A stretch of DNA of 64,000 nt from an uncultured Phycisphaerales bacterium (GTDB taxonomy: Bacteria > Planctomycetota > Phycisphaerae > Phycisphaerales > UBA1924): NCBI GenBank assembly GCA_963973795.1, contig CAXBAF010000007.1, positions 27,200-91,199 of the forward strand. Direction: 5' to 3'. Shown piece by piece: positions 11,104 to 41,925 of the stretch. Position 1 is the first letter of the stretch, and every line of letters begins with the position of its first letter. The notes beneath the pieces are model-generated. The model was not told the origin of the DNA and did not search any database. It was given only the letters and a program-made list of their open reading frames with translations. Both the position numbers and the translations under genes were made by a program.

Positions 11104-11231
11104 CGCGTCCGGATTGGATCAGGTAGTATCGTTGCGTTGGCGGGGCGGTACGGCGCGGCCGTGCGGTGTCCTTGCCTTGCTGTTTCGTATCATCGCGCCG
11201 CGTCTGGCGGCTGATTCGAGGGGAACGGAAG

Positions 11232-11759: not shown

Positions 11760-11779
11760 TCGATGCGAACAGCCGGTGA

Positions 11780-16693: not shown

Positions 16694-16701
16694 TGGACCG
16701 G

Positions 16702-16986: not shown

Positions 16987-17210
16987 GGCTGGTTTCCCTC
17001 CGGGCGGGTCCGTGTACTGAACCGTCGGATCCGTATCGGCGGCGTGAGGCCGAGCTTTGAGATTGCGGGGGAGATGCGAGGCCGGGTAGTCGGTTTGTCG
17101 GGGTGGGGTCGGCAAACGCCGCGTGATCGGACGGCGGCAACGGCATCGGGGTCGTGGTCTGCGCGGTTTCCGGACGGTCTGTATGATGCGCCGAGCATGA
17201 GATCGGGCGT

Positions 17211-24882: not shown

Positions 24883-27800
24883 ATGCCGAAATCCGAATCG
24901 CATCAGGTGTCGGCGTCCCAGCGCGTTTGGCTCGCGGTGCTCGGGAAGCACCCGGGCTGGAACGATCACCTCGACGACATCGGTCTCGACACCGAGCGGC
25001 TGGTCGCCGTCAAGCGGCATCTCTATGTCGAGGGTGTCGGCGGGGCGATCAACGCGGGGACGTGGGAGGCGTTGAGCGAGCAGGAGCGTGACGAAGGGTT
25101 CTCGCACACCTTCTTCTGGCGCCAAGCGGACGGCATGGTCATCGGGCGGATGTGGTCGTCGAGCGACGGCAAGGGGCGATCGAAGTACCCGATGATCGCG
25201 TGCGCGATGTGCAGGTCGCTCCCGTTTTCGTTCGTCGCGGGCCCGCTGCTTGAGCGGCTGCGCAGGCTCGAAGCGGTCTGCCGAGAGGTGACGACCGCGT
25301 CGGATGTGATCGGCGCGGTCGATCGGGTAAAGGCTGAGGTTGCCGAACTCGCCTCCTTCGCGCCGGAACTGAGCGACGCCCCGGTCGTGGGTGGTGAATC
25401 CGGGAAGGGCTCCGCCGCGGAATTGATCGAGAGCGGCCGGCTCGGCGAGGAAGGAGTCGGTCTTAAGCGTGTGCTGTATCAAATGGACCGCGAGATGGGC
25501 GCCTACGTCCGCCCCGAGGGAAGCGGGACCGCAAGCCGATCAAGATCGGTTGAGGTCCGCGGGCAGCACATCCGTGTCCCGACGTCGTCGGGGCCGATCT
25601 CGCCCGGGCAGGAACACCGGGATCTGAGCCTTTGGGCCCGTCTCCTGCTCAACAAGATCGATCCGTTGGTTCCGATCTTCCTTGCGACCAAGGACGGACG
25701 CGATTGGGTCGACATCATCGTCGGGGAGTTAGGGCCCACGCCGCTCGCGTGCCTGCAGTCTTCGCCCGAGGCGATGCCGTATGTCTCTGACATTCCCTTT
25801 ACGATCGATGGCGATATCGAGCAGTCGATCGAGCAGACCATCGAGGCGTCGCGTGCCGGGACAGTCGTCGAGCGAGATCCGTGTTTCGTTGACGTTCCGC
25901 AGGAACGGCTTGCACCGTTCCTGCGTCCACGCCGGGCAGAGACAAGCGCTGCGGAAACCGATCGGAAGCCGCTCTTTCTCGGGATCGGGGCGGCCGCGAT
26001 CGTCGTGGTGGTTGTTCTCGCTTTCCTGCTGATGCGGGGTGGCGGTGACGGCGTGGATCAACCAGAGACCCGCGAGCAGAGCCGCGCAGAGCCTGCGGAA
26101 AATCCTGCTGCCACCGAGATCAGCGACGGGCAGACACGTGCGGATCCGGTCAATCCGGCTGCGACTCGGGAGACTCCGCCGGGATCGGCTGTTGCAACGG
26201 ATGATCAGGCCACCGAGCCTGCTCCTGCTGATAGCCCGATAGATCGTCCGACCGAGGTGATCGCGTCCGATCCCGTGGGTCGGCTGGAGGCATTCGAGCG
26301 CTGGTGTGCTCGGTACGAGGTCTGGTATCTGCCGTTCACCGAAGCGATTGAGGACGGGGCAATCGCCGGCGACCCTGTGTTCGCAAAGGAGTTGAAGGCG
26401 GCGATCGCCTCCGCGAAGCGCGAGGGCGACCGGCTCGATCCGCTGATCAATACTCCCGGGCGATATCGGAGCCTCGACTCTCTGAGAGAGTCTCCACCCG
26501 ATGCGATCTACGAGCCCGGCTTCGGTGAGACGATCGCCGCGGGGCTCGGCCCGATCGAAACGATCCGGTCGGTGATGCATTCGAGCCGCTGGGAATCGAG
26601 GGAAGCCCTCTCTCGAATGGCGACGCTCACGGAGTCGTTCGGTGGGGTGATGCCGGATGACCTGTCGGCGTTGTCGTTGAGGCTCGATTCGGATGATGGA
26701 GCGGAAGCCGCGGGCGCGGTTCTCGGCCTTGCGGCGGTGTCTGGCAGCCTTGGTGCGAGCGTCTCCGCGATGGACCAACTGATCACGGTCCGAGGTGAAC
26801 TCGAATCGATCCCGGACAACTCTGTTGCGAGGGCGTTCGATCGGCTCAGCCCGATCGGGGAAGAAAGTTCTGGCAACACATGGCTCGCCGAGGCCCGGCG
26901 CAGGTCACTCGAACTCGTCGCGTTTGGCGAGGAATTGCTCGAAGCCGCGGAGTCTAACTATCCACGCGTGGATCCGGAGCTCTTTGCGGGGCGGATCGCG
27001 GCTTTGCCTGAAGCGACCGATTCGGCGACCGCGTTGGCGTACCTCCGGGGCTGGATCGAGACGACCCGGGACCGGTCGCTCTACCTGCTGGCTCCCGCGG
27101 ACGATCCCCGACGCGGGTTGTCTGAGCCGGAACGCGTCGCGGCGTTGCGGGAGGGATTGCAGAATCTGGCGGTGTCGGACGATAACGCCGAGACCCGCGA
27201 GCTCACGGGCCTTCTCGACGCGTACGACGAAGCCGCGAGCGAGTTGCGCGACCTTTCGTGGAACGAGGCGACCAAGGCCCGCGTCACCGAGGAAACAGTG
27301 GCGCTCACCGCGCTGCTGGATGGGATTGCGGACCGCATCGACGCGGAATCACGCAGCCGAGCGATCGAAGCAGAACGATACATCGCGACGCTGAACGCGA
27401 CGGGGACCGTCACGAATTCGGGATCTGACGCGATCGATCGCGCGTGGATCACAGCACGCGACGCCGCGGTCGATCGGTTTGAATCTGATGGTGATGTCGT
27501 CGCACTCTCAAGGGCGATCGACACCACGAAGGAAAGCCTCGCGTCGTTTGAATCGGCGATGCCGAGACCTGAGTTCGACGACGGTGCGTTGGGAACACTC
27601 TCGGCGATGTTTGTCTCGACGGCGGATGAAGAACGCGAACGGGTTCTTTCCGACTTGACCACAGCGGCTGATGCGGCGTCGGACGACGACGCCCTCGCTT
27701 TGTACAACGAGTGGCGTGAGAGAATCGTCGAGTCTTCTGGCTCGTTGGTGTCGCTGCGCGATGGTTTGGACACCTGGGACGATCGCGAGGCTCGCGAGGC

Positions 27801-29478
27801 GGCGGAGCAGTGGGGCGGCTCCTGGGCGGCCGCAAACATGGAATGGCGAGCAGAAGCGCCGGAACTTGGTCGGTATATCGAAGCGCTCGGCTCGCCGAAC
27901 CCTGTCCGTCTCGGGGAGATCGCGCAGTCGCCCGACTCCCAGCCGGGGATCGCGTTTGTGGCGTGGAGCCGCCTCGACGAGGCCGACCCGGAATGGGGCA
28001 CGTCGATCGAGCAACTCGAACTGGATCGGGTCGTGACGGGGCGTCTCGCGGAGTCTGTCGCAGCTCTCCCCGAAGCGAGGGCGGCGGAGGTGACTTCGAG
28101 CATGTCTCGATCGGCGACGGCGCGGTGGCTCCGAGGTGCATCTTCGTGCGACGCTGCACAGTTTTCGAGGATCGCAGCGATCGGTGGTGATCTTCCGCTC
28201 GCGGAAGACCAACTCCCGGCTGGCGTCCGATTCAACCTGTTTGTCGAAGGGCTCCGGCGCTCGCTGGGTCGGGGCGAACCGCTCGACCGGGAAGAACTCG
28301 TCGCTCAGGCAGAATCGGCGCGTGCTGGCCTCGATGAAGGCGGTGGAGCGAGCGCCTGGCTGGCGTCGTTCGTTGATGAGCTTACGGCCCGAGAGGGGCG
28401 TGAGGTTGACTACCGCGTCATCGGCCCGGCGAGAGCGGGGTGGGCTGTTGAGCCGTTCGATTCGGGGCGTGTGCTCCGATATTCATGGACCGGCGCGAAC
28501 CAACCCCGTGAACTGACATTCCGGCTCGTTGAATCGCCGGAGGCCGGCGTGTTTTATCTGGCGGAGACCGAGGCTCCGGCGTGGTTGATGATCGATTTCG
28601 TGCTCAATGGCGAGTACGCCGAGGCCGTGGCATCGAGCCTCCCCGAAGATTGGGACCCGATCCCCGACACCCGGCTCGGGCCGAGAGTCTGGGATTGGGG
28701 GCGGCAGCGAGGCGGCCGCGGGATCCGACTGGCCCGCACCTGGGTGATGAAGGATCGAGGGTCGGACCGGCCGTATTACGCGGACGGGTTCGAGGATCGT
28801 GTCGGCCGACCCGGTGATGACCACCCGATCCAACGAGTTTCAGCTCGGGCGGCGGCGAGCATCGCGGCAGCGGCCGGCTGCCGCTTGCCGACGCAGGCGG
28901 AATGGCGTGCCGCCTTCGGCACGATCGGGAGTCCTCCGCCGAGTGCGGATTGGAATCTCCGCGACCGGACATTCGACGAGCAGCGCTCGCACACGCTCTC
29001 GCTCGGCGCGGGGCTCGCGGTGACGTGGCCCGACCAGCAGTCGTTCGTCGATGGCATGGACGGGATCGGGCAGGGGCCGGACGCGGAGAGCCACGAATGG
29101 TCGGATGGCGTGCTGTGGTTCACCGAGGTCGCGGCGGGTCGTGAGCGTCCGTTCCGCCACCTTCTCGGGAACGTCGCGGAGTATGTGCTGCCGGAAACGA
29201 ACGACGCGGCATGGCTGTCGGATCGGGGCGGCGACGTGGGAAGCCGCGTTCGTGCGCTCGGTGCGGTCTCGCGGGTGCTTCCGGTCATCGGTGGTTCGTC
29301 GCTCTCGCCGCCGGGCGTTGGCGTTGATCGGGCGGTCGTCCCGGCGACCGACACCGGCGTGCTCGGCTACTCAGATGTCGGCTTCCGGCTCGCGTTTTCG
29401 CCAGGGGTTGAAGCGCCGCTGGTGGTTGTGGTCGGGGAGCTTCTGGGCGATGCGCCGTTCTTGCGCATGGCTGATTAG
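24883..29478 (+). CDS. tagF: TagF (DUF2094) domain fused to a TM helix, a giant ectodomain and a C-terminal FGE-sulfatase-fold domain (1531 aa)
   Basis: The N-terminus reads VWLAVLGKHPGWNDHL and IGRMWSSSDGKGRSKYPMIACA, matching the TagF patterns GKLPsrGDFv and pS.D.vGR.yPl. The TM helix PLFLGIGAAAIVVVVVLAFLLM lies at nt about 25969-26034 and is followed by a Pro/Thr/Ala-rich linker. The C-terminus (nt about 28507-29410) reads LTFRLV...GCRLPTQAEWRAAFG...WNLRD...FRHLLGNVAEYV...GYSDVGFRLA. Confidence 0.8.
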   Translation: MPKSESHQVSASQRVWLAVLGKHPGWNDHLDDIGLDTERLVAVKRHLYVEGVGGAINAGTWEALSEQERDEGFSHTFFWRQADGMVIGRMWSSSDGKGRSKYPMIACAMCRSLPFSFVAGPLLERLRRLEAVCREVTTASDVIGAVDRVKAEVAELASFAPELSDAPVVGGESGKGSAAELIESGRLGEEGVGLKRVLYQMDREMGAYVRPEGSGTASRSRSVEVRGQHIRVPTSSGPISPGQEHRDLSLWARLLLNKIDPLVPIFLATKDGRDWVDIIVGELGPTPLACLQSSPEAMPYVSDIPFTIDGDIEQSIEQTIEASRAGTVVERDPCFVDVPQERLAPFLRPRRAETSAAETDRKPLFLGIGAAAIVVVVVLAFLLMRGGGDGVDQPETREQSRAEPAENPAATEISDGQTRADPVNPAATRETPPGSAVATDDQATEPAPADSPIDRPTEVIASDPVGRLEAFERWCARYEVWYLPFTEAIEDGAIAGDPVFAKELKAAIASAKREGDRLDPLINTPGRYRSLDSLRESPPDAIYEPGFGETIAAGLGPIETIRSVMHSSRWESREALSRMATLTESFGGVMPDDLSALSLRLDSDDGAEAAGAVLGLAAVSGSLGASVSAMDQLITVRGELESIPDNSVARAFDRLSPIGEESSGNTWLAEARRRSLELVAFGEELLEAAESNYPRVDPELFAGRIAALPEATDSATALAYLRGWIETTRDRSLYLLAPADDPRRGLSEPERVAALREGLQNLAVSDDNAETRELTGLLDAYDEAASELRDLSWNEATKARVTEETVALTALLDGIADRIDAESRSRAIEAERYIATLNATGTVTNSGSDAIDRAWITARDAAVDRFESDGDVVALSRAIDTTKESLASFESAMPRPEFDDGALGTLSAMFVSTADEERERVLSDLTTAADAASDDDALALYNEWRERIVESSGSLVSLRDGLDTWDDREAREAAEQWGGSWAAANMEWRAEAPELGRYIEALGSPNPVRLGEIAQSPDSQPGIAFVAWSRLDEADPEWGTSIEQLELDRVVTGRLAESVAALPEARAAEVTSSMSRSATARWLRGASSCDAAQFSRIAAIGGDLPLAEDQLPAGVRFNLFVEGLRRSLGRGEPLDREELVAQAESARAGLDEGGGASAWLASFVDELTAREGREVDYRVIGPARAGWAVEPFDSGRVLRYSWTGANQPRELTFRLVESPEAGVFYLAETEAPAWLMIDFVLNGEYAEAVASSLPEDWDPIPDTRLGPRVWDWGRQRGGRGIRLARTWVMKDRGSDRPYYADGFEDRVGRPGDDHPIQRVSARAAASIAAAAGCRLPTQAEWRAAFGTIGSPPPSADWNLRDRTFDEQRSHTLSLGAGLAVTWPDQQSFVDGMDGIGQGPDAESHEWSDGVLWFTEVAAGRERPFRHLLGNVAEYVLPETNDAAWLSDRGGDVGSRVRALGAVSRVLPVIGGSSLSPPGVGVDRAVVPATDTGVLGYSDVGFRLAFSPGVEAPLVVVVGELLGDAPFLRMAD

Positions 29479-29567
29479 GTTGCTTTGTGTGCGGCTGTGA
29501 CGGCCGGTGCGGGTAGTTTGTGCTAACATATGCGTGGGTGATTTTCCACCACGAGCGGGGTTTTGTC

Positions 29568-32252
29568 ATGGGAAGAATCATGCAGCGGAGCGTGCGGGCG
29601 ATTGTGCTCGCCTCTGGGGCAGCGGGCGGTCTTGCTTCGACCGGCGCCTGTGCGTTTGCGGTCTCCGGCGGCGTGTTCGCCGGCGTGGGCGTCGCGGCTG
29701 AGGTCGCGGTGGAAGGCACAGAGTTTGTGGTTGGCGCGGTGGAGGTTGTCTACGCGCCCGGGACCTCGGGCGGGATCGCCCCGTCGGAGCTTGCCGGGGT
29801 GGACGTTGAGCTCGTCCGCCAATCGAGCGGGCTCCTGATTGCCCCGGGGAGCGGGGCCGGCACGCCCGTCACGATCTCACTCGGGAACCTGAGCAACGCG
29901 CGCACGGAGCGTTTCGATTCGAGCGGTCTGCGCTCGGTGCTCGAGGCGATTCACGAGCGGTACACGACGCGGACCGGGGGCAAGGCGTACGTCGTTCCCG
30001 ACGCGACGCAGGTGCTGCTCCGCGGCATTGGTGAGGATTATCGAACCGGGTCGAGTGGCCTTCGGTTCGTCGTCTACCCCAGCCGGGGCACGAATGAACG
30101 CCCGACTCGCGCGACGCCGGCGCCTTCCACGGCCGCGAGTTCGCAGCCTGCAACAACGCCCGAACCTCGGCCGCGTCCTGCGGCGCAGCCTCAACAGGTG
30201 ACACCCGCACCGGCGGCATCGGTTCAGCGTCCGGCCGAGCAGCCGGCAGGTTCGGCCTCGACTCCAGCGCCGACTCAGTCCGAAGCGCCGGCGATCGTCG
30301 AGACAACTGATCCCGATGACGGAGGCCGCGAGCCGCCGGCTCGGATGGACCGGTCAACAACGGTGCGTGTTGTCCCGCAGGATGGGACGGTTTATGACCC
30401 CGACGACCTTCCGGTCGAGCAATTTGAGTTCGATGCGGAGATCGACGGTGAGTCGCCCTTCGAGATGACGGGCTTCGAGTTTTCGTTCCCCAAGCCGCAC
30501 CCCGACCTGCCGGCACCCGAGGCGCTCGGTGATGTCACGGTCCGGCTGATCCGGACGCCGAGCGGCTTTGTCGCGCGCGAGGGCCAGGGCAAGCTTGTCC
30601 GCTTGGGCGACCTGGGCGTTGGCGGTTCCGATCGGCTGTACTTCTCCGCCTTCGAGGCGTCGCTGGCTGCGGTGCTCCAATCGTTCCGCGACGATTCGAT
30701 CGTCGGTGTGCTTGTCACCCCCGATCCCGACAAGGGGATCGGTCCTGACGAGGTCGAGCGGTATTACGACGAGCGTTCGGAATACGGCGTTACGACGCTC
30801 CCGATTCTTGTCTATGTCCCGCAGGTCACCCGGCTGAAGACAATCGCGTCGGGCGATCGGATCGACACCGAAGACCGGCTGAACAGCCCGAAGCACGCGA
30901 GGATCACGCGGGGGTCGCCCCTGCAGCCGGGCGAGGGCGAGATGCCTAACGCGCTGCTGCGGTTCGAGCCCCTGAACACGTACGCGTTCCAGCAGAGCCG
31001 GCACCCCGGCCGGCGCGTGGATGTCGCGATCGCTGATGGCAGCGTGCCGGGCGAGCCCGAGACGCAGGGCGACGCGGAGGTGCAGTACCTCGTGCAGGAG
31101 ATCAAGCCCTGGACGATCTACGCCCAGTTCTCGAACACGGGCACGGAGCAGACCGATCAGTTCCGCGAGCGTGTCGGCTTCGTCAACAACCAACTTCTCG
31201 GCTTCGACGACATCTTCTCGATCGACTACATCACCAGCAATCTCCGCGAGAGTCACGCGATCGTCACTTCATACGACGTGCCCCTTTCGGATGATGGCCG
31301 ACTCCGGGCGAAGGTCGAGGGCGAGTGGTCGGAGTACAAGGCCTCGGATGTCGGCGTCGCGAATGAGAGCTTCGAGGGCCGGACATACGGATTTGGCGGC
31401 GAGCTTCGGTACAACTTCCTGCAGGTCAACGATTTCTTCGTCGATGTTTACGGCGGGGGCAAGTACCGCGATATCGAGGTCGAGAACCTGGGGCTTGTCA
31501 ACGGACGTGGTCAGGAAGAAGTCTTCGTCTTCGACGTCGGACTGAGAGCCGAGCGGGTGCGAGCGAACTATTCGATCTTCGCGGAGGTCGGGCTTGAGAT
31601 CTCGGCGAACGGGATCACGGGTGCGAACGAGGCGGATCTTGAGCGGCTCGGCCGCCTGAACCCCGACGAGGAGTGGACGGCGCTCCATTGGGACGTTGAT
31701 CACAGCTTCTACCTCGACGGTATCGGTTCATGGAACTCCGGGAACCGTCAGTTGGTCCACGAGATCGCGTCGCGATTCAGCGGGCAATACGCGTTTAACA
31801 ACCGCCTCATCCCCAACTATCAGACGGTGGGCGGCGGTCTCTACACGGTCCGCGGGTATCGCGAATCGCTGGTCGCGGGTGATAACGGCGTCTTTGCAAG
31901 CGTCGAGTACCGCTTCCATCTCCCCAAGGCGCTGCCCGCGGGCGATCAGAGCGTTTCGGTGTTCGGCGAGTCGTATCGCGTGCGGACCGACAGCGAAGGT
32001 CTTGCACCCGATTGGGACTTCATTCTCAAGGCTTTCTTCGATGTCGGGTATGTGAACAACAGCCGGGCGCTCGGGTTCGAGAGCGACGAGTCGCTGATGG
32101 GCACCGGGTTGGGTGCCGAGCTGCGTCTGGCGGGGAATCTGAGTTTTCGGACCGACTGGGGCATCGTATTGGACGAGATTGGTTCCGATACCCCCTCCCC
32201 GACGACGGTTGGATCGCAGCGTTGGCACTTTGTCTTCACGCTGCTCTACTGA
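29568..32252 (+). CDS. Two-partner-secretion outer-membrane transporter (TpsB; ShlB/FhaC/HecB family) with an extended N-terminal region
   Basis: ATG 29568 gives MGRIMQRSVRAIVLASGAAGGLASTGACAFA (signal peptide). The C-terminal barrel carries QTVGGGLYTVRGYRESLVAGDNGVFASVEYRF and a terminal aromatic (FVFTLLY). It lies immediately upstream of a TPS-domain gene. Confidence 0.85.
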   Translation: MGRIMQRSVRAIVLASGAAGGLASTGACAFAVSGGVFAGVGVAAEVAVEGTEFVVGAVEVVYAPGTSGGIAPSELAGVDVELVRQSSGLLIAPGSGAGTPVTISLGNLSNARTERFDSSGLRSVLEAIHERYTTRTGGKAYVVPDATQVLLRGIGEDYRTGSSGLRFVVYPSRGTNERPTRATPAPSTAASSQPATTPEPRPRPAAQPQQVTPAPAASVQRPAEQPAGSASTPAPTQSEAPAIVETTDPDDGGREPPARMDRSTTVRVVPQDGTVYDPDDLPVEQFEFDAEIDGESPFEMTGFEFSFPKPHPDLPAPEALGDVTVRLIRTPSGFVAREGQGKLVRLGDLGVGGSDRLYFSAFEASLAAVLQSFRDDSIVGVLVTPDPDKGIGPDEVERYYDERSEYGVTTLPILVYVPQVTRLKTIASGDRIDTEDRLNSPKHARITRGSPLQPGEGEMPNALLRFEPLNTYAFQQSRHPGRRVDVAIADGSVPGEPETQGDAEVQYLVQEIKPWTIYAQFSNTGTEQTDQFRERVGFVNNQLLGFDDIFSIDYITSNLRESHAIVTSYDVPLSDDGRLRAKVEGEWSEYKASDVGVANESFEGRTYGFGGELRYNFLQVNDFFVDVYGGGKYRDIEVENLGLVNGRGQEEVFVFDVGLRAERVRANYSIFAEVGLEISANGITGANEADLERLGRLNPDEEWTALHWDVDHSFYLDGIGSWNSGNRQLVHEIASRFSGQYAFNNRLIPNYQTVGGGLYTVRGYRESLVAGDNGVFASVEYRFHLPKALPAGDQSVSVFGESYRVRTDSEGLAPDWDFILKAFFDVGYVNNSRALGFESDESLMGTGLGAELRLAGNLSFRTDWGIVLDEIGSDTPSPTTVGSQRWHFVFTLLY

Positions 32253-32350
32253 GTTGCTTGTTTCTGTTGTAGACTGGACTTACGAGCGCCCCGGGAAGGG
32301 AATCGCTCCTTTGCTTCGCGTCAACACCGATAAGAATTGAGGGCCTCGAG

Positions 32351-35300
32351 ATGTCGCAACGTCAGACCAAGAGCCGTATGCAGAATCGCCGTGATCGTTC
32401 GCGCACGAGCGGGCTGATCACCGCGGGTGTGATCGCGGGCGTGGTGAGCGTCCCGGCGCTGGCGGGTCCCAGTGGCGAGCAGGTCGTCCACGGGTCGGCC
32501 CGATTCGACCGCGCCGGCAACCACACGACGATCACGACGAGCGATCGCGCGATCATCAACTATGACTCGTTCAACCTGAACCAGTACGAATCCGTCCGGT
32601 TCATGCAGCCCGGTGCGTCGTCGCGGGTTCTGAACCGGATCCAGGGCGCGGCCCCGACGTTGATCGACGGTTCGGTATTCGCCAACGGTAATGTCTACTT
32701 CGTGAACCGGGCGGGTGTCTTCTTCGGGCAGAACGCCGTGATCAACGTGGGCGGGATCTACGCCGCCGCGGGCAACATCACCAACCAGGACTTCCTGAAC
32801 AATGTCAACCAGTTCACCGACCTGTCGGGATCGGTGATCAACGAGGGCACAATCAACGCGACCAGCGAGGCCCACCTGGTTGGTCGTCGGGTCGCGAACT
32901 TTGGACGGATCGTCGCGCCGAACGGCATGGTTTCGATGACCGCCGGGAACGACGTCCTGCTCGGCCAGCGCGGGGGGAGGGTCTTCGCGCGGATCAGTGG
33001 CGACGCGTCGAACGCGGGCGCGGTCGGCGTCGAGAACCACGGTGTCATCGACGCCGGCTCGGGCCAGGTACTCGCGGGTGTGGGTGATCACTTCGCGCTG
33101 GCGCTTTACGACACCTCGGTGATCCGGGGCGATTCGGTCCGCATCGCGGGCTCGGCCCGCAGCACGGTGACGGTGCGCGGCGACATCGACGCCAGCAACG
33201 CGACCGGCAGCGGTGGTGATATCGAGATCCTCGGCGGGCGGATCGGTGTCTACGGCGCCGATCTGGACGCGAGCGGCACGACCGGTGGCGGCAATATCAA
33301 TATCGGCGGCGATGAGCGCGGGCTCGGCGAACGGCTCCGCGCCGAGGTGACGCTTGTGGACAGCGGGACCTCGCTGTCGGTCGATGCGACCTCGAGCGGT
33401 GACGCCGGGCGTGTCGTCGCGTGGTCCGACGGCGCAACAGTGTTCCGCGGAAAGGTCAGCGGCAACGCGCCGGGCAAGGGCGGCTTCACCGAGGTGTCGT
33501 CGCTGGGCTATCTGGAATTCAACGGCTCGATCGATCTTCGGGGCGCCGCCCAGAACGGCACGCTTCTGCTCGATCCCAAGAACATCATCGTGACCGCGAC
33601 GAATCAGGGCGGCGCGACGGATATCAACGACGTCAACAGCTTCGCCGTCGACCCGAACGCGACCACACTCATCCATGACCAGGTCCTCGAAGGCTGGCTC
33701 AACGGCGGCATCCTCGCGGACATCGTCTTCCAGGCGAACAACGACTTTATCTTCAACCCGTTCGCGTCTGTGACACAGAACGCCGGAACCAACTCACTCC
33801 GCATCTTCGCGGGTCGTCGAGTCGTGTTCGGCCCGAACTCGAATCTGATCATGGGCGGCGGCAGTCTGTTCGCGGTCGCGAACGCGGTGAATGAAGCCGG
33901 TTTCGTCGCGGCGAGCCGCGACGCGGGTCTCGGCTCGATCATCCTCGCGAACGGCTCGAACATCGAGATCCAGGGTGCGGGCCAGGTCGCGGACTTCACC
34001 GTCGATACCGGTGCGATGTCCGGTTCCATCGTCATGGTGGGGGAGCTGCTTTCGCCGACGATCAACCTCACCACGATCGACGCCACGAGCCAAGTGCTCT
34101 TCGTCGAAGACGGCAACGGGCTCACCGACCAGATCGGGCTCGGGGGCAGCGTCATCGTGAACGCGGGCGGTCAGGTCCTGTTCACCGGCAACGCGGGCGA
34201 GTGGTCGTTCGGTGCGCTGGATGTCACATCGCCTGAGATCCTCTTTGATAATGCCGCGACGGGCGTCGCGGCGACGGCCGGCTCGCTCCGGTTCGCCTCG
34301 CCTGTGTTCAACTCGGCGACCAACGGTCTGTTCACCTTCAACGGCCCGGCTGCCATCGAGGGGACCTACACGTCGGCCGGCGCGGCGCTCTTCACGGGCA
34401 CGCTGGACCTTGAGGGCGGGATCGATAGCAACGGCGACCTGACTTTCCAGGACGCGGTGACCCTGACGGGCGACGCGGTCATCAATCAGCTCTCGGCGGG
34501 CAATATTGAGTTCGCGAGCACCCTCGGCGCAACGAACGCGCTCATGGATGACCTGACCGTCAACCTCAACGGCAACGGCGACCTCTCGTTCCGCGGGCAG
34601 ATCGGGACCTTCGCGTCCCAACTCGGAGATATCCGGGTAACCGGCCTCAACGACACGCTCACGTTTGATGACTTTGTCTTCGCCGATTCGCTGACCTCCT
34701 CGGGTATCGGCGGCACGGTCAACCTCGGCAACGGCGATGACCAGTTCACGCTGCAGGGCAACAACGGGGCGGGCGCGGCGCTCGCGATCACTGGCGCCGA
34801 TGTCAATCTGGGCGGCAACGTGCTCGCGGTGGCGAGCGGTGTCTCCATCGAGCAACTGCTCACCGTCGCCGGCGATTTCTCGATCGGTGCGCTCAACCCA
34901 GCCGGGACGATCTCGCTGGGGTCGGTGCTTCTCGATGCCTCGGGCGGCAACGCGAACCTGACGCTCAACACGTTCGGCGGGGCGGACATCTTCGTCGCCG
35001 ACGGCGCGGGCGAGACCATCCGGCGCGACGCGAGCGGCGCGAACAGCGCCGATCTGAACATCAACTCGTCAGGCGGCGACGTGACCCTCGGCAATGTTCT
35101 CGCGAACGGGGCCGCGGATAACTTCCTGAATCTCCTTGAGATCCAGGCGGGCGCAGGCGAGGTGAACTATGCGGGCACCCGCTACGCGGCCGAGACGCTG
35201 ACGCTCAACGCCGCCGCCCACAACCTCGCCGACGCGGACAGCGTCTTCGGGGACGACGCGGCGTCGACCGCCGTCACCCAGGACATCTCCTTCCTGGGCG

Positions 35301-38300
35301 GCAATGTCAATGTCGCCGCGGGGCGGATGCTCGAGCTGAACGCGCTCGGCGCGGGCGGCAACGCTTCGGTTTTCGGCGTGCGGACGAACGGCGCGGGCTC
35401 CTCGCTCGTCTTCCGCGCGACCGACACCGCGTCGCTCGGCACGGGCGACACGGTCGGCGACGCGGGCAACGCCCTCGCGTCGATCGACGTGATCTCCGAT
35501 GACGTCACGATCGGCAACGGGATCTTCGCGACCGATCTGCTCCTCGATCCCACACTCGATTTCCTGACCTTCGGCGCCGTCAATTTCCTCGGCATGATGG
35601 TCGACGCGGGCGAGATCGCGAACCTCAACCTCGGTGCGATCGGCACCCTCTCGCTCGGCAGCAACGACATCGCCAACTTCGGCGCGTACAACGGCATTAC
35701 GGTTCTCACCGGCGGCACCGCGCTCACTTCCGTCGGGCAGCTCAACGCCTTCGGGAATACCTCGGTCTCCGGCTCATTCGTGACGAACGCCGCGGGGGTG
35801 AACTTCTTCGGCCCCACGACGCTCAATGCGGGCTCGACTTTCCAGACCACCGATTCGCAGGTGCGGTTCTTCTCATCCCTGGCGGCGTTCAACAACGCCT
35901 CTCTGGTCGATACCGGCAACGGGCTGATCTCGTTCGTCAACATCCTGCCGGTCCCGGGCGGCGTCGAGGTCGGCGCGGCGATCGACGCGGCCTTCGGCGG
36001 CGGCTCGCTCGCCATCACCACCGGGGCGGGCGGCACGGTCACACTCTTCGACGTCGGCCCCGCATCGCAGCTCGCGACGCTCACCGTAGACGGCGGGACC
36101 ATCAACTTCCGCGGCCAGCGATACGACGCCGCGGCCCAGACTTACACCGCCGACGCGTTCAACCTGCTCGGGGACGGGCCCGGCGTCCCGGGCAACGCGA
36201 TCTCCTTCTCGGGTGTGACGCCCGGGATGAATGTCCAGTCGCTCTCGTTCCTCGATCTGGGCGGCGGCGCTGACGCGACCGTGCAGGTCGCGGCGGGCGT
36301 CGCGGTCGACGCGATGCTCGACGGGGCGTTCCTCTCCGAGGCCGAGATCCTCGGGACGGGCGGCGCCGAGTCGCTGACCGTCGACGCGGGCTCGATCCAA
36401 CTCGACCGCGATCTCGGCAACTTCGCACCGGGTTCGGAGCTTGGGTCGGTCTCGCTGACCGCCGCCAACATCACCGCCGCGAATGTGTTCACCTCCGGTG
36501 ACCAGACCTACACGCTCGATACGGGTGCCGGGCAGCTGACGCTGAACGGCGCGACCTATCTCAGCACGGGCGCGTCCACGATCTCGATCAACGGCACCGC
36601 CGCGGACAACGTCCTTCTCAACGCGGGCGGACCGACGCTGTTTAATGTCGCGAACGGCACCGTCAACCTGAATGTCCCCTCGATCGTCGGGGCGGGCAAC
36701 GACCTCGTGGTGAACGCGGGGACCGCGGGCACGATCACCTTCGCGCCGGGCATCCAGATCACCGACGCGGGCCAGTTCTACTCCGCGGGCACGATGAACT
36801 TCCTCGGCTCCGCGATGCTCTCGAGCATGAACCCGGGGGCGGCGATCTCGTTCATTGGGGGCACGGTCGGCACGGCAGGCGACCTGACGATCCAGACCAC
36901 GGGCGCGAATGCGGGTGTGAATTTCACGAGCGCACCGCTAACCGTGGGCGGCGCCCTGCTCGTGACGACCGCGGGTGACGCGTCCGCCGTTGGCTTCTCG
37001 GGCGGGTCCGTGAACGCGACGGCCCTGATCATCTCGACGACCGGTCCGAACTCCGGTATTTCCTTCTTCAACGCCCCGGTGACAGCCACTAGCTTGTTCG
37101 CGCGGACCACTGGCGATTCGTCGGCCGTGGACTTCACGGGCGGCTCGATCAGCACAACGGTGGGCGCGCTCATCACGACCGGGGGTGCGAACTCCGGCAT
37201 CTCTCTCACCAACGCCTCGCTCACCGGGGGGACCAGCGTGGTCTTCTCGACCGGTGGCGACGCCTCCGTGCTGAACTTCTCGGGCAGCGCGATCAACGCC
37301 GCCGATGACATAGTGTTCCAGACCTTCGGCATGAACTCCGGTATCGACCTCATCAACGCTCCGCTGACCGCGGGCGGCAACTTGCTCCTGCAGTCAACCG
37401 GCGACGGCTCCGCCCTGGACTTCTCGGGCAGCGCGATCAACGCCGCCAATGACCTGACACTCGACACCGCCGGTGCGAACTCCGGTATCACCCTCACCAC
37501 CGCCCCGCTGACCGCGGGCGGCACCCTGCTCGTCCGGTCCACCGGCGACAACTCTGCCCTGAGCCTCTCGGGCGGCGCGATCAACACGACGGGTGACCTG
37601 ACGATCTCGACGACCGGCGCGAATTCCGATGTTGCCCTTGCGAACGCCGCGGCGACCATCGGCGGGCTGACGACGATCACGACCACGGGTCTGAACGCGG
37701 GGATCGCGTTGACCAACGCCCCGCTGAGCCTGGGCGGCAACCTGCTGCTCCAGACCACCGGCGCGAACTCGGCGGTGAACGCCGCGGGCGGGGCGATCAC
37801 CCTCAACGGATTCGATGTCACGGTCGACGTGTCCGGCGTTGGCGGGGATGTAAGCCTCGCGAACCTGATCGCCGCGGGCGGCGAGACGGTGACGATCCGT
37901 GCCAACGGCCTGACGACCCTCGCGGGTGCGGGCGGCGCGGGCCTCGGCTTGCTCGATCTGCAGACCAACACGCTCGCGATCAACGGTCTGACGGCCGCCG
38001 ACAGTGTGCTGATCAACACCCTCGGGTTCAACCCGCAGGACATTTCTGTGGGCGATGACGCCGCGCTCACGCCCGGGACACTCAACATCTCGAACGCGTC
38101 GCTGGCGAACCTCACGCCGGTCGCCGGGGGGACCAACAGCCTCACGATCGGCAACGCGGCATACGCGGGGCAGATCCTGATCGGGGACGCGACGATCAAC
38201 CGTGATGTCGCGTTCACAACGGGAGGCAGCGGGATCATCAGTCTCGCTTCGACCGGCCTGCAGGGTACGGGCGGCCTGACGAGCATCGCGATGACCGCTC

Positions 38301-40594
38301 CCGAGATCCGCCTCGGCGGGGCGATCCAGTCGAACGCCGGGGCCTTCGCCCTCGCGTTGAACGGACCGGTGAACGTCTCGGGCACCGCCGATATCGACAC
38401 CAACGGCGGCGCGATCCTCTTCGCCGACGCGATCAACGGTCTGAACCCAGGTACCGGGTTCCTCGACGTCGACACCGCGGGCGGCACGATCACGATGCGT
38501 GAAGACCTCGGCGTCATCGGTGCCACCAACGCGCTCGGACAGCTTTCGCTGGCCGGGGCCCCGACGCTCCGCCTCGTCGGTGCGAACACCTCGGGCGACC
38601 AGTTCTTCCAGACAACGGGCGGCGCGATCACGCTGCTCGACGGGGCAGCCTTCACCGCCGGCGACAACGGTGGCATCGCGTTCGCGAGCAATGTCGCCGC
38701 GCTGGGCGATGCACAGGCGACCACTGGTGCCGCAGGTTCGATCACTTTCCAGGGTCTGCTCGACGGCGTCGGCTCGCCGGCCCAGACCGTCACCCTGCTG
38801 ACAGGGGCCGGCGGTTCGGTGAATCTCGCCCAGGTGGGCGGGCCCGCCGGTCTCGGATCGTTGGATGTCACGACGGGGACGGTGACCCTCTCGGGTAACC
38901 TGTCGCTGCTGCAGAATCTTTCGATCATGGCGGACCAGACGCTGCTCAGCGGCGACCAGTCCATATCGGCTCAGTCGATCACACTCGCGACCGACGTCGA
39001 TTCCAACGGGGCGGCCGCGAATCTCTCGCTCGAGAACGCGATCACCACGTTGATCAACGGCCGCTTGGGCGGCAACTCGCCGCTCGCCTCGTTCACCTCT
39101 TCGCAGAACGGGACAACGACCCTCACGGGTGGCGTGTTCAGCAACGGCCTCGCGCTGTTCCGCAACGGTGTGATCATCTCCGGTGACGCGATCGTCCAGT
39201 CGTTCGGGAACACGGCCGCTGACGGCGTCCGCTTCCTCTCGACCATCGACGGCACCACGGCCGGGGCCGACTCGCTCACGCTGCTCACCGACCTGACAGG
39301 CGGGGAGTTGGCCGGCATCTCGCCCAACGGCCTTGGCATCGTGGATGCCAACGTCCCGGTGATCTCGCTGTTCGGCGACGTGGGCTCGAACATCGCCCTC
39401 GGCACGTTGGGCCTCAACTTCGGTGTTGATGTCAACGGTAACGCCATCGATGGTCGTGCCTTCGTCCCGGCTAACGCGACGATCGTGCTCGGCGATTCGA
39501 ACGCGTTCTTCGCCAATGGGACGACCACCGACCTGACCATCAACGCCGACAGCCTGTTCATGGGCCTCCGCGAGAAAATGGTCGCCCTCGGCAGCCTCAC
39601 GGCCAGCGGGTCCAACGCCCGCCTGGGTGATATCGCGACGATCAACAACCTCGCGGTCAACTACGACGCGGTCACCGTGCTCCTCCGCGAGGCTGCGGAT
39701 ATCTTTGACCCGACGACCGGGCTGGTCGCCCAGGACAGCGGCACCGACTTCGTCGCGGGCGGCACGCTCCAGTTCGGCACGATCGTCGCCTTCGACGGCC
39801 CCGGCGGGGCCCCGGAGTTCTCGCTCCCCGGCGGTGACCCGTCGATCGACGCGAACGTCGGAGCGTTCCTGTTCAAGTCGCTCGACAGCGACGTGAACGC
39901 GCTCGTGAACGGCGGCGGCGTGGTCGTCGACGTCCGAGCGGACGGCCCGACGAACACCAACGTCGCCGAAGCCCTCGCGGGTGCGATCCCGCAGGAGCAG
40001 GCCGCCGAGCCGGTGGTGACCGATGTCCCGCTCAGCCAGGTCGCGTTGGACGCGTTGGTTGACCTGGGCATCATCATCAAGCAGCCGGGCGAGAACCTGT
40101 ACCTGATCGATCTCCCCGATGACATCGCGGGTGCGGCGGATTCGACCCGCGTCTCGCGTCGCCGTCTGGAACCCACCCTGGTGAACTCGCTGGTCTCTGA
40201 CTACGACGCCGCGGTGAAGACGACGGTGACGGCGACGCCCGCCGAGGCGGGTGAAGGCCAGGCCGAGACTGTCTCCGTCGTCCGCCGGGACACCGAGATC
40301 AAGTCGATCCTGGATGACGCCTGGGACGCGTTCGTCGAGGCCGAGGGTGACAATGGCACCGCGGCCGACTTCTACGCCTTCGTCCGCTCCAATGCGGGGC
40401 AGTTCAGCAAGGCCGTGGTCGAGATCGAGCGTCTTCAGGAGGTCGTCTCCGCGGCCCGCGTGCTGGGTCTCACGGAGCGTGAGATCAGCGCCGTGAAGAC
40501 CAAGATGTTCACGATGATGCAGCCCAACATGGGTGCCAGGGCCTTCCGCGACCTGATCGATGCGACCCCCGCGGCGTTGCTCGGCGTCCGCTGA
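32351..40594 (+). CDS. Filamentous-haemagglutinin-like TpsA exoprotein (2747 aa)
   Basis: After a signal region, the N-terminal TPS (haemagglutination activity) domain reads IINYDSFNLNQYESVRFMQPGASSRVLNRIQGAAPTLIDGSVFANGNVYFVNRAGVFFGQNAVINVGG. This is followed by about 2300 aa of Gly/Ala/Thr/Asn-rich beta-helix-type repeats and a non-repetitive helical C-terminus. Confidence 0.9.
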   Translation: MSQRQTKSRMQNRRDRSRTSGLITAGVIAGVVSVPALAGPSGEQVVHGSARFDRAGNHTTITTSDRAIINYDSFNLNQYESVRFMQPGASSRVLNRIQGAAPTLIDGSVFANGNVYFVNRAGVFFGQNAVINVGGIYAAAGNITNQDFLNNVNQFTDLSGSVINEGTINATSEAHLVGRRVANFGRIVAPNGMVSMTAGNDVLLGQRGGRVFARISGDASNAGAVGVENHGVIDAGSGQVLAGVGDHFALALYDTSVIRGDSVRIAGSARSTVTVRGDIDASNATGSGGDIEILGGRIGVYGADLDASGTTGGGNINIGGDERGLGERLRAEVTLVDSGTSLSVDATSSGDAGRVVAWSDGATVFRGKVSGNAPGKGGFTEVSSLGYLEFNGSIDLRGAAQNGTLLLDPKNIIVTATNQGGATDINDVNSFAVDPNATTLIHDQVLEGWLNGGILADIVFQANNDFIFNPFASVTQNAGTNSLRIFAGRRVVFGPNSNLIMGGGSLFAVANAVNEAGFVAASRDAGLGSIILANGSNIEIQGAGQVADFTVDTGAMSGSIVMVGELLSPTINLTTIDATSQVLFVEDGNGLTDQIGLGGSVIVNAGGQVLFTGNAGEWSFGALDVTSPEILFDNAATGVAATAGSLRFASPVFNSATNGLFTFNGPAAIEGTYTSAGAALFTGTLDLEGGIDSNGDLTFQDAVTLTGDAVINQLSAGNIEFASTLGATNALMDDLTVNLNGNGDLSFRGQIGTFASQLGDIRVTGLNDTLTFDDFVFADSLTSSGIGGTVNLGNGDDQFTLQGNNGAGAALAITGADVNLGGNVLAVASGVSIEQLLTVAGDFSIGALNPAGTISLGSVLLDASGGNANLTLNTFGGADIFVADGAGETIRRDASGANSADLNINSSGGDVTLGNVLANGAADNFLNLLEIQAGAGEVNYAGTRYAAETLTLNAAAHNLADADSVFGDDAASTAVTQDISFLGGNVNVAAGRMLELNALGAGGNASVFGVRTNGAGSSLVFRATDTASLGTGDTVGDAGNALASIDVISDDVTIGNGIFATDLLLDPTLDFLTFGAVNFLGMMVDAGEIANLNLGAIGTLSLGSNDIANFGAYNGITVLTGGTALTSVGQLNAFGNTSVSGSFVTNAAGVNFFGPTTLNAGSTFQTTDSQVRFFSSLAAFNNASLVDTGNGLISFVNILPVPGGVEVGAAIDAAFGGGSLAITTGAGGTVTLFDVGPASQLATLTVDGGTINFRGQRYDAAAQTYTADAFNLLGDGPGVPGNAISFSGVTPGMNVQSLSFLDLGGGADATVQVAAGVAVDAMLDGAFLSEAEILGTGGAESLTVDAGSIQLDRDLGNFAPGSELGSVSLTAANITAANVFTSGDQTYTLDTGAGQLTLNGATYLSTGASTISINGTAADNVLLNAGGPTLFNVANGTVNLNVPSIVGAGNDLVVNAGTAGTITFAPGIQITDAGQFYSAGTMNFLGSAMLSSMNPGAAISFIGGTVGTAGDLTIQTTGANAGVNFTSAPLTVGGALLVTTAGDASAVGFSGGSVNATALIISTTGPNSGISFFNAPVTATSLFARTTGDSSAVDFTGGSISTTVGALITTGGANSGISLTNASLTGGTSVVFSTGGDASVLNFSGSAINAADDIVFQTFGMNSGIDLINAPLTAGGNLLLQSTGDGSALDFSGSAINAANDLTLDTAGANSGITLTTAPLTAGGTLLVRSTGDNSALSLSGGAINTTGDLTISTTGANSDVALANAAATIGGLTTITTTGLNAGIALTNAPLSLGGNLLLQTTGANSAVNAAGGAITLNGFDVTVDVSGVGGDVSLANLIAAGGETVTIRANGLTTLAGAGGAGLGLLDLQTNTLAINGLTAADSVLINTLGFNPQDISVGDDAALTPGTLNISNASLANLTPVAGGTNSLTIGNAAYAGQILIGDATINRDVAFTTGGSGIISLASTGLQGTGGLTSIAMTAPEIRLGGAIQSNAGAFALALNGPVNVSGTADIDTNGGAILFADAINGLNPGTGFLDVDTAGGTITMREDLGVIGATNALGQLSLAGAPTLRLVGANTSGDQFFQTTGGAITLLDGAAFTAGDNGGIAFASNVAALGDAQATTGAAGSITFQGLLDGVGSPAQTVTLLTGAGGSVNLAQVGGPAGLGSLDVTTGTVTLSGNLSLLQNLSIMADQTLLSGDQSISAQSITLATDVDSNGAAANLSLENAITTLINGRLGGNSPLASFTSSQNGTTTLTGGVFSNGLALFRNGVIISGDAIVQSFGNTAADGVRFLSTIDGTTAGADSLTLLTDLTGGELAGISPNGLGIVDANVPVISLFGDVGSNIALGTLGLNFGVDVNGNAIDGRAFVPANATIVLGDSNAFFANGTTTDLTINADSLFMGLREKMVALGSLTASGSNARLGDIATINNLAVNYDAVTVLLREAADIFDPTTGLVAQDSGTDFVAGGTLQFGTIVAFDGPGGAPEFSLPGGDPSIDANVGAFLFKSLDSDVNALVNGGGVVVDVRADGPTNTNVAEALAGAIPQEQAAEPVVTDVPLSQVALDALVDLGIIIKQPGENLYLIDLPDDIAGAADSTRVSRRRLEPTLVNSLVSDYDAAVKTTVTATPAEAGEGQAETVSVVRRDTEIKSILDDAWDAFVEAEGDNGTAADFYAFVRSNAGQFSKAVVEIERLQEVVSAARVLGLTEREISAVKTKMFTMMQPNMGARAFRDLIDATPAALLGVR
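36899..37810 (+). repeat. In-frame tandem repeat inside the tpsA-like gene: about 6.5 copies of a 141-144 bp (47-48 aa) unit
   Basis: The repeated peptide pattern is TGANSGI.LT.APLT.GG.LL..T.GD.SA..FSGSAIN...DL....; an identical block of about 30 nt, ACTTCTCGGGCAGCGCGATCAACGCCGCC, recurs about 144 bp apart (near 37272 and 37416). Confidence 0.8.
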
Positions 40595-40607
40595 ACAGTC
40601 CGCTGAA

Positions 40608-40655
40608 CCGAGAACCAAACCGGGTTTCGTCGGGGCGTGCGTCGCACGCCCCGAC
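40608..40655 (+). terminator. Long GC-rich hairpin after the tpsA-like gene (candidate intrinsic terminator)
   Basis: AACCGGGTTTCGTCGGGGCGTGC-gtc-GCACGCCCCGACGAACCCGGTT forms a 22-bp stem with a one-base bulge, followed by ATTCTTTG. It starts 14 nt after the stop codon, and tssA starts 41 nt downstream. Confidence 0.65.
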
Positions 40656-40695
40656 GAACCCGGTTATTCTTTGACGGGACCCAGAGGAACGAGCC

Positions 40696-41925
40696 GTGGC
40701 ACTGATCGACATCGACAAGCTACTCAGCGAAATCTCGCCGGACGAGCCTTGCGGCCCGGACCTCGAGTACGACGCCGAATTCGTTGCGTTGCAGCAGGAC
40801 GCGGAAGGCACGCCGGCGAAGTACACGCCCGACGGGCAGCTCGTCGATGAAGGCGAGGACCCCAACTGGCGTGACATCCGAGATCGCTGTGTCGCGATGT
40901 TTGATCGGACGATCGATCTCCGGATCGCCGTGCTGCTGGCCGACGCCCTCATGTGCCAGCACGGCCTCGAGGGGCTCCGCGACGGGCTCGCGTTGCTCAA
41001 GGCGATGCACGAGCGGTGCTGGGATCATTTCCACCCGCAGCTCGATCCGGACGATGACAACGACCCGCTGATGCGGATGAACCTCGTCGCGGCATTCGCC
41101 GCGCCGATCGGCATGGACGGCGATCCGCTTCGGTTCCAGCAGCGTCTCAGGGATGTCCCGCTCGCCAAGTCGCGTCAGATCGGAAATTTCGCGCTTCGTG
41201 ATCTGATGGTCGCAACGGGTGATCTTCCTCCGAGCGCTTCGTCCGGCGAAACTCCGCCCAACGAGCAACTGATCGAGGCCGCCTTCCGTGATACGGAGGG
41301 CGACGAACTTAAGCGAGCGGGCGAGGCCGCCTCCGAAGCCGTGGTTCTTTCTCGAGAATTGGATCAGTGGGTCACGACGAAGGTCGGCTCGACCAACGCC
41401 GCGAACCTCGCGTCATGGCACGAGATCGTGGGTGATCTCAACAAACGCCTGACCGCTCGTATCGCGGCCCGCTTCCCGGGCGAAGCCGTCGGCGATGACG
41501 AGGAATCGGGTGCCGATGATGATGTTAGAACCACCGAAGGTGGTTCTCCCCGGCCGTCTTCGGCGGGCCTGAGCGGTGGGGTTCACTCACGCGACGACGT
41601 GCTCCGAGCGCTGAACAAAGTCCTTGAGTACTACGCCGCATACGAGCCATCGAGCCCGGTGCCCATGCTGATCCGGCGGGCTCAGCGGCTCGTCACGATG
41701 GACTTCATCGACATCATCCGGGACCTGAGCCCCACGGCGATCGAGCAACTCCGCGTGATCGGTGGCGAAGAGGCGGTCTCGGGTTCCGCCGGCCCCGTGA
41801 GCACGGCGCCACCCCCGACGCCCGCAAGCGCAGCGGCACCCGCGGCCCCGCCGCCCAGCAGGTCGTCCTCTGGTTCCGCTGAACCGGTAAAACTCAGCGC
41901 GTCGGATTTTGCGCCGAGATCCTGA
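40696..41925 (+). CDS. tssA: T6SS protein TssA (ImpA N-terminal domain; short TssA1-like type)
   Basis: The N-terminus reads LLSEISPDEPCGPDLEYDAEFVALQ (ImpA_N). The C-terminal region reads YEPSSPVPMLIRRAQRLVTMDFIDIIRDL and is followed by a Pro/Ala/Ser-rich tail. The start is GTG. Confidence 0.88.
   Translation: MALIDIDKLLSEISPDEPCGPDLEYDAEFVALQQDAEGTPAKYTPDGQLVDEGEDPNWRDIRDRCVAMFDRTIDLRIAVLLADALMCQHGLEGLRDGLALLKAMHERCWDHFHPQLDPDDDNDPLMRMNLVAAFAAPIGMDGDPLRFQQRLRDVPLAKSRQIGNFALRDLMVATGDLPPSASSGETPPNEQLIEAAFRDTEGDELKRAGEAASEAVVLSRELDQWVTTKVGSTNAANLASWHEIVGDLNKRLTARIAARFPGEAVGDDEESGADDDVRTTEGGSPRPSSAGLSGGVHSRDDVLRALNKVLEYYAAYEPSSPVPMLIRRAQRLVTMDFIDIIRDLSPTAIEQLRVIGGEEAVSGSAGPVSTAPPPTPASAAAPAAPPPSRSSSGSAEPVKLSASDFAPRS

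Follow-up and report, generated by a model that had tools for sequence, protein, structure and literature searches.

Type VI secretion systems (T6SSs) work only on contact, which poses a problem for free-living planktonic bacteria. Two surface structures that serve a T6SS have been described. TasL, a surface protein of more than 380 kDa encoded in the T6SS2 island of Vibrio fischeri, is expressed along with the T6SS proteins, and both contact and killing in hydrogel depend on it (PMC9040878). In the ixotrophy of Aureispira, a secreted appendage, the GhpA grappling hooks, captures prey cells in liquid, which the T6SS then kills (PMC12428579). Two-partner secretion (TPS) systems are another route by which giant proteins leave the cell. 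In FhaC/FhaB of Bordetella, CdiB/CdiA, HMW1B/HMW1 and EtpB/EtpA, the transporter (TpsB) combines an Omp85-type 16-strand barrel and its VRGY loop with periplasmic POTRA domains, and the gene directly downstream encodes its partner (TpsA), a giant protein that is exported by Sec, carries a TPS domain at its N-terminus and has a repetitive beta-helical shaft. In a stretch of 64,000 nucleotides (nt) from an uncultured Phycisphaerales bacterium (assembly GCA_963973795.1, contig CAXBAF010000007.1; hereafter the window), a pair of this kind, tpsB and tpsA, was found inside a T6SS gene cluster. One T6SS lineage has long been accompanied by this pair, which is often kept but can be dispensed with. Its product may be, with a probability of about one half, a surface tether that catches and holds neighboring cells for T6SS attack.

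The cluster resembled the H1-T6SS (HSI-I) of Pseudomonas aeruginosa, a T6SS-i cluster built from a tssA-tssB-tssC-hcp-tagJ-tssE-tssF-tssG-clpV block and a tssK-tssL-tssM-tagF block. HSI-I has a TagQRST-PpkA-PppA-Fha1/TagF control module, with outer-membrane and periplasmic accessory proteins that sense the envelope. In HSI-I the blocks are divergent and TPS genes are missing, whereas the window has collinear blocks and a TPS pair next to the tagF end. The two genes lay between tssK-tssL-tssM followed by a TagF-like gene of 1531 amino acids (aa) and tssA-tssB-tssC-hcp, all on the + strand, a setting unlike that of classical TPS systems. The original prediction, made by a model from the DNA letters, had equated this junction with the divergent promoter region of HSI-I. 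This equivalence was not borne out, because both arms run in the same direction and the pair comes after the tagF end; no TPS pair at all was present in G293, a relative whose arms diverge as in HSI-I.

The placement of the pair was conserved over large evolutionary distances. TpsB homologues with 81, 68, 49 and 35% identity were all found in the order tssL-tssM-[tagF-like]-tpsB-tpsA(-tssA-tssB-tssC), and shorter homologues (643-674 aa) formed stand-alone pairs. Seven of the 20 nearest relatives had TssA, and in the six of these that could be judged tpsB lay 9-13 kb upstream on the same strand, without exception. A scan of species-representative genomes yielded 80 TpsB loci, about 28 of which had T6SS genes in their flanks, and tpsA stood beside tpsB in nearly all TpsB loci examined.

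For a wider sample of the class, 401 Phycisphaerae genomes were searched for TssC and for the C-terminal half of TpsB (C-terminal 474 aa), and 40 of the regions were fetched and scanned with the proteins of the window. T6SSs with a TssC at least 70% identical to that of the window were assigned to its type, those at 50-60% were classed as intermediate and those at 34-42% as a second type. The class sample added 20 further genomes of the window's type in which the pair was linked to the T6SS. In total, 31 genomes of this type could be judged; the pair was linked in 26 (18 genera) versus 5 in which it was not (2 genera), while ten more were not judgeable because their contigs break, often inside tpsA. 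Three of five intermediate loci were linked and two were without the pair. A TpsB-family gene occurred in 37 of 41 genomes with TssC at 50% or more versus 69 of the 360 others (Fisher p 8e-20, a value that ignores phylogeny). The second T6SS type (about 27 genomes) was accompanied by the family in one genome of 27, unlinked there. The association extended to a family placed outside the class of the window by the search (f100), which has a TpsB-family gene; one of its members (G645) carried tpsB-tpsA-tssA-tssB-tssC on one contig. The placement of the pair is thus far from chance.

Linkage also outlasted breakage of the cluster. A closed genome (G133) had the order tssA-tssB-tssC-hcp...tssK-tssL-tssM-tagF-tpsB-tpsA, and in another (G110) tssM-tagF-tpsB-tpsA was separate from tssB. 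In a third (G248), tpsB-tpsA-tssA remained as a group, and the 9.6 kb upstream contained neither tssM nor tagF. The pair therefore followed one T6SS arm when the cluster broke, the tagF arm in the first two genomes and the tssA arm in the last.

In a tree of 104 TpsBs, that of the window fell in a fully supported clade of 16 proteins, all of them T6SS-linked. Linked and stand-alone proteins interleaved in the rest of the tree, where well-supported branches forced at least eight changes; a single origin of T6SS linkage was not supported. Trees of TssM and TpsB from 23 linked loci had 15 of 20 splits in common (random mean 0.26, maximum 3), so the pair and the T6SS have long been inherited together. 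The stand-alone TPS copies look like escapes, duplicates or remnants.

Four loci deserve separate mention. One contig (L017, RHKP01000012.1), labelled 'Cyanobacteria bacterium CYA', carried a T6SS-TPS locus that hardly differed from the one in a Phycisphaerales metagenome-assembled genome (MAG; L019) and was probably mis-binned. A MAG assigned to Tepidisphaera (L081) also showed the arrangement. At another locus (L135/L136, G270:C23), tpsA apparently spanned about 19 kb, roughly 6300 aa, and a partial second TpsB-like stretch lay immediately upstream of tpsB. In a member of the same family (L133/L134, G084:C1:880500-912400), about 10 kb was inserted between tssA and tssB, with tssK-tssL-tssM-tagF-tpsB-tpsA-tssA still together despite the insertion.

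The two proteins of the window had the following features.

29568..32252, + strand: tpsB-like outer-membrane transporter, 894 aa (Pfam ShlB, AlphaFold model, Foldseek)
29715..30083, + strand: extra N-terminal POTRA-like domain of TpsB (residues 50-172, ~125 residues; per-residue model confidence, pLDDT, about 90-97)
30090..30377, + strand: disordered linker of TpsB, rich in Pro, Ala, Thr and Gln (residues 175-270, ~95 residues; pLDDT below 50)
30378..31100, + strand: domain 2 and barrel-proximal POTRA of TpsB (residues 271-511; AlphaFold model), conserved throughout the family
31110..32249, + strand: Omp85-type beta-barrel of TpsB (residues 515-894; AlphaFold model, Foldseek, alignments A1 and A2)
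32351..40594, + strand: tpsA-like exoprotein, 2747 aa, rich in Gly, Ala, Thr and Asn, no Cys
32468..33148, + strand: TPS secretion domain of TpsA (residues 40-266; PF05860, TIGR01901)
37175..37616, + strand: tandem repeats of 144 nt (48 aa) in the TpsA shaft (Tandem Repeats Finder, score 387-415)
39932..40591, + strand: C-terminal end-domain of TpsA (last ~220 aa), conserved and mostly helical (alignments A3 and A5; AlphaFold model)

TpsB is an FhaC/CdiB-type outer-membrane transporter. Its 894 aa were counted from the ATG at 29568; the public record begins four codons downstream and has 890 aa. Pfam ShlB (PF03865) matched with 57 bits against a cut-off of 22.7, the match covering the last third only. 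The AlphaFold (AF2) model, built from 48 homologues, reached a pLDDT of 81.8, and its best structural match was FhaC (4ql0, Foldseek E 3e-24), followed by CdiB (6wim, E 1e-23, TM-score 0.70). The family profile found nothing among the sequences of the PDB. In the barrel, the L6 motif VRGY was located at 761-764 and a second motif at F823-x-D825-x-G827; R762, G763 and Y764, as well as F823, D825 and G827, were invariant among 12 and among 48 homologues. Residues 1-48 were modeled with a pLDDT of about 30; no helix was predicted there, at the position of the plug helix H1 that threads the barrel in FhaC.

The N-terminal 421 aa of TpsB gave nothing in Pfam (E up to 1) or NCBIfam. In the model, this side of the protein consisted of POTRA modules of the beta-alpha-alpha-beta-beta type at residues 271-430 and about 419-511, plus a copy at 50-172, which makes three POTRA-like modules versus two in canonical TpsB. 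Residues 50-172 are a paralogue of the domain at 271-430, as a hidden Markov model of either one matched the other. The extra length of the protein is due to this duplication and to the ~95-residue Pro-rich disordered linker joining the additional domain, a construction unlike that of classical TPS transporters. The linker differed in sequence and length between homologues, and the first domain was conserved and well folded. Both copies of the duplicated domain were present in 16 of 35 T6SS-linked TpsBs versus 2 of 32 clearly stand-alone ones (L039 and L073; Fisher p 3e-4), counts that concern related, non-independent sequences with duplications falling in about three clades. Median lengths were 807 aa for T6SS-linked and 686 aa for stand-alone TpsBs (p 1e-6).

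TpsA carried the TPS domain above threshold, with 68.6-71 bits for PF05860 (cut-off 33.5) and 59 bits, also above cut-off, for TIGR01901. Its N-terminus was signal-like and of the Sec type, with the most hydrophobic 19-residue window at residues 19-41. Together with the transporter next to it, this makes tpsB/tpsA a true TPS system, and the genes given in the original prediction, a ShlB/FhaC-type transporter and a 2747-aa FHA-like exoprotein, were correct in coordinates and protein sizes and in agreement with Pfam and NCBIfam. Unlike in classical TPS exoproteins, the second canonical TPS motif read NRAG in place of NPNG, and the Fil_haemagg repeats of Pfam were not matched. Beyond the TPS domain, nothing was found in Pfam (E up to 1) or NCBIfam. 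Modeling covered the last 418 aa of TpsA (pLDDT 69), in which beta-helix-like strands, as the last part of a beta-helix, preceded a helical bundle (pLDDT 80-90 there, medium confidence overall). TpsA is a Sec-exported exoprotein that probably forms a beta-helical fiber tens of nanometers long.

The C-terminal end of TpsA was a further departure from classical systems, being a conserved helical domain without a known relative and without a toxin-immunity end of the contact-dependent inhibition (CDI) kind. The last 220-350 residues were conserved in both T6SS-linked and stand-alone family members. This end had no Pfam match, matched PDB sequences at chance level only (E 0.036 or higher), and its medium-confidence model had no match among PDB folds (Foldseek, best E 1.3). 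A profile of the last ~220 residues retrieved 1070 cluster representatives (830 at E<=1e-10), always with the domain at the extreme C-terminus and in proteins of up to 6151 aa; in a homologue search restricted to this region, the relatives were all Phycisphaerae-type. The end-domain looks like a large uncharacterized domain family of giant secreted proteins.

The genes and intergenic segments around the pair were as follows.

24883..29478, + strand: upstream neighbor, 1531-aa gene with a TagF-like N-terminal part of ~330 aa and a large C-terminal part
29479..29567, + strand: gap between the TagF-like gene and tpsB, 89 nt (fold z +0.73; no terminator-like site)
32253..32350, + strand: gap between tpsB and tpsA, 98 nt (fold z +0.98)
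40620..40672, + strand: terminator-like hairpin (40620-40663) and T-rich tail, between tpsA and tssA
40696..41925, + strand: tssA, right neighbor (Pfam ImpA_N, 104 bits)

The host genome (3.83 Mb in 53 contigs) was that of a Phycisphaerae-type planctomycete, and the public records closest to the window were MAGs of Phycisphaerales and Phycisphaeraceae. By Pfam, six genes without assigned function (8510-18176) opened the + strand block upstream of tssK. They were followed by tssK (18229), tssL (19613), tssM (20420-24829) and the 1531-aa gene, and the right arm ran on the + strand from tssA (40696) through tssB, tssC, hcp, tagJ/impE, tssE, tssF and tssG to clpV. Two VgrG genes were found elsewhere in the genome, so the T6SS gene set is otherwise complete; Pfam recognized no TssJ within the cluster. 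A second sheath-like gene, ~30% identical to TssC, was located in the same genome outside the window (contig C27, G000:C27:44735-45706) and may belong to another contractile injection system. On the + strand, GC skew lay between +0.2 and +0.28 in the first 20 kb and was about -0.05 beyond 33 kb. This drop occurs although the genes remain on the + strand, and protein composition or replication strand may explain it.

The 1531-aa gene was the left neighbor of tpsB and stood directly upstream of it in most T6SS-linked loci. Its N-terminal ~330 aa (24883-25902) were strongly conserved, with the motifs FGKHPGWNDHI and SSDGKGRxKYPM, and a weak FGE-sulfatase match was found by Pfam at residues 1310-1356 (E 5e-6). 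Pfam TagF_N gave weak matches in 5 of 23 relatives (best E 0.012) and none in the protein of the window; the N-domain found nothing in the PDB, by single sequence or by profile. On sequence grounds, the gene is a putative member of a very divergent TagF-like family. The position of the pair between tagF and tssA, as originally proposed, was confirmed, while the name tagF for the left neighbor is weak.

Gene spacing and RNA folding bore on how the pair may be transcribed. Upstream gaps of about 90-100 nt on the same strand had been announced and measured 89 and 98 nt, with no significant RNA structure found by folding in either. The only strong hairpin followed tpsA, again as predicted, with about 21 pairs, a minimum free energy of -55.9 kcal/mol and a z of -6.6 (versus +0.7 and +1.0 upstream), followed by UUAUUCUUU; nothing comparable preceded tpsB or tpsA. 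The hairpin was single-copy, and a dispersed repeat element was rejected as its nature, as the genome held no second copy. It was kept with the same tail, and with compensatory changes in the stem, in three relatives (L002, L003 and L010), and a different hairpin occupied the position between tpsA and tssA in another (L013). In more distant loci the hairpin was absent, and the gap between tpsA and tssA was 42 nt (L026) or at most 11 nt (L035). In one distant relative (L005, GCA_038746265.1; 10001-10004), a 395-aa TagF-like gene overlapped tpsB by 4 nt, which suggests translational coupling.

The simplest reading of this arrangement is that tpsBA would form the tail of the tssK-tssM-tagF-like transcription unit and that, in the genus of the window, the hairpin would act as a terminator or attenuator parting tpsBA from tssA onward. 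The gap between tpsA and tssA (40595-40695) measured 101 nt, of which ~30 nt (40664-40695) separated the hairpin from the tssA start codon and ~20 nt the T-tract from the tssA ribosome-binding site. With only ~20 nt past the T-tract, tssA would need read-through or a promoter inside the end of tpsA. The space between the hairpin and tssA is too short to hold a separate tssA promoter, and tssA may be controlled by read-through or attenuation.

The arrangement is co-oriented, tight and conserved to TpsB identities as low as 35%, which speaks for a functional association of the pair with the T6SS and against a recent chance insertion, and comparative genomics supports the association that had been proposed. 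As to its nature, we consider the tether to have about even odds. The pair closes the tssK-tssL-tssM-tagF-like block, so its products would appear along with the T6SS membrane complex. The TpsA fiber would then catch or hold nearby cells at the surface, and once these are held, a weapon that depends on contact could be effective for a planktonic cell of the marine water column.

This proposal has precedents in TasL and GhpA. Like TasL, TpsA is a giant protein, proposed to lie at the cell surface, that is encoded inside a T6SS gene cluster and conserved there. Unlike TpsA, TasL is a predicted lipoprotein with FN3-like repeats and not a TPS substrate (PMC9040878); at the N-terminus of TpsA, a signal of the Sec type precedes a TPS domain, and there is no lipobox. 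The role of TasL in cell-cell contact and in killing in liquid or hydrogel was shown by genetics, that of TpsA is one we infer, and the likeness drawn between them is one of proposed function. GhpA likewise differs, as a type IX secretion system substrate in Bacteroidota and not a TPS protein, and the review consulted does not describe it as belonging to the T6SS operon (PMC12428579). Literature searches found no paper on a TPS pair within a T6SS cluster or on TPS-T6SS coupling, in line with the original prediction, to which these two known cases of adhesin or fiber coupling to a T6SS have to be added (PMC9040878, PMC12428579). Coupling of a surface adhesin to a T6SS is thus already known, and what would be new is a T6SS-associated contact factor delivered by two-partner secretion.

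Several observations weigh against a tether working for the T6SS. About two thirds of the genomes with a TpsB-family gene (about 67 of 106) had no T6SS, so the fiber works without one, and stand-alone TpsAs had the same C-terminal domain. In one genus (g72, four genomes), the pair was on another contig with no T6SS genes nearby. T6SS loci without the pair were found in G293 (TssC 80% identical, no TpsB in the genome), in G330 (tssK-tssL-tssM-tagF-tssA-tssB-tssC with nothing between, no TpsB in the genome) and in a planctomycete outside Phycisphaerae (G491, tssK-tssL-tssM-...-tssA, no TPS). Beyond the class, a TpsB-family gene was missing from most genomes whose TssC was 68-77% identical. The conserved hairpin after tpsA may uncouple its transcription from tssA-clpV in the genus of the window, and scans of Pfam and NCBIfam recognized no adhesin-type domain (lectin, Ig, FN3) in TpsA. 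The expectation that relatives always hold the pair in their T6SS locus therefore stood for 26 of the 31 genomes and failed in the other five (G293 and genus g72), as it did in G330 and G491. The pair is facultative and not needed by this T6SS type. As the fiber family occurs without T6SS and homologous T6SSs occur without the fiber, it is an accessory and not a structural part.

Some of these observations are also what one would expect if a TPS operon common in Phycisphaerae had landed between the T6SS arms of an ancestor and merely hitch-hiked since, the pair acting independently in aggregation, surface attachment or particle colonization, for example. The family is widespread without T6SS, homologous loci lack the pair, a terminator-like hairpin parts tpsA from tssA in the genus of the window, and plain vertical inheritance of neighbors would also give the congruence of the TssM and TpsB trees. 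We nevertheless regard the absence of any functional coupling as unlikely, given that linkage outlasted rearrangement of the cluster in three different ways and was kept from 81% to 35% TpsB identity and in family f100 (G645), that gaps were minimal or genes overlapped in several lineages, and that the family co-occurred strongly with this T6SS lineage and hardly ever with the other type.

A further proposal makes the pair a contact sensor or trigger, the TpsA fiber and TpsB signaling outer-membrane contact to the firing control of the T6SS. The extra TpsB domain, on a linker that could span the periplasm, would touch putative periplasmic modules of the TagF-like protein or of a neighboring 1637-aa protein and so release a firing brake. 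That tpsB immediately adjoins the tagF-like gene in most linked loci, even after rearrangement (G133, G110), would fit such a route, as would the well-folded, conserved first domain on its disordered linker and the enrichment of this architecture among T6SS-linked TpsBs. However, the sequences behind this enrichment are related, with the duplication falling in about three clades, and it is also present in the two stand-alone proteins. Five loci (L005, L016, L030, L032 and L085) carried the pair despite a short (~395 aa) TagF-like gene, so that dependence of the linkage on a large TagF ectodomain was rejected, and four others (L014, L017-L019) combined a large TagF-like gene with a short TpsB. 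Sensing by the pair is accordingly about as unlikely as hitch-hiking. The complete chain, in which contact at the TpsA tip would pass through the tethered TpsB domain to the TagF-like brake and the 1637-aa protein, and the T6SS would fire only when a target is held, is a more speculative proposal still; if true, it would be a new, phosphorylation-independent way of aiming a T6SS and a new signaling use of two-partner secretion.

TpsA could also be a weapon itself, a CDI-type toxin carrier or a ShlA-type cytolysin complementing the T6SS, as TPS systems include CdiA and ShlA and the TpsB model was as close to CdiB as to FhaC. Against this, neither VENN nor a related pre-toxin motif occurred in TpsA, Pfam and NCBIfam recognized no toxin domain in it, and its C-terminal 220-350 aa were conserved family-wide and not polymorphic. 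No small immunity-like gene followed, as tssA begins 101 nt past the tpsA stop and the hairpin fills the gap. The CDI-type reading was rejected on these grounds, and a weapon of either kind is very improbable. It is equally hard to credit that TpsB serves as outer-membrane anchor or exit of a T6SS without canonical TssJ. The missing Pfam match for TssJ and the position of this outer-membrane barrel gene just behind tssM and the tagF-like gene might suggest such a role, but homologous loci (G293, G330, G491) do without any TpsB-family gene and TpsB has all the hallmarks of a dedicated transporter for the adjoining TpsA.

Across 18 or more genera of Phycisphaerae from marine and fresh waters, a giant secreted protein, probably a fiber, has thus been passed on together with a T6SS. 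Structural and genetic work has concrete targets in the variant TpsB, with its tethered extra POTRA-like domain, and in the TpsA end-domain family, which comprises about 1000 sequence clusters. If the tether reading is true, these bacteria would have a second, independent solution to the contact problem that is solved by TasL in Vibrio and by grappling hooks in Aureispira, and two-partner secretion would join the list of T6SS accessory modules.

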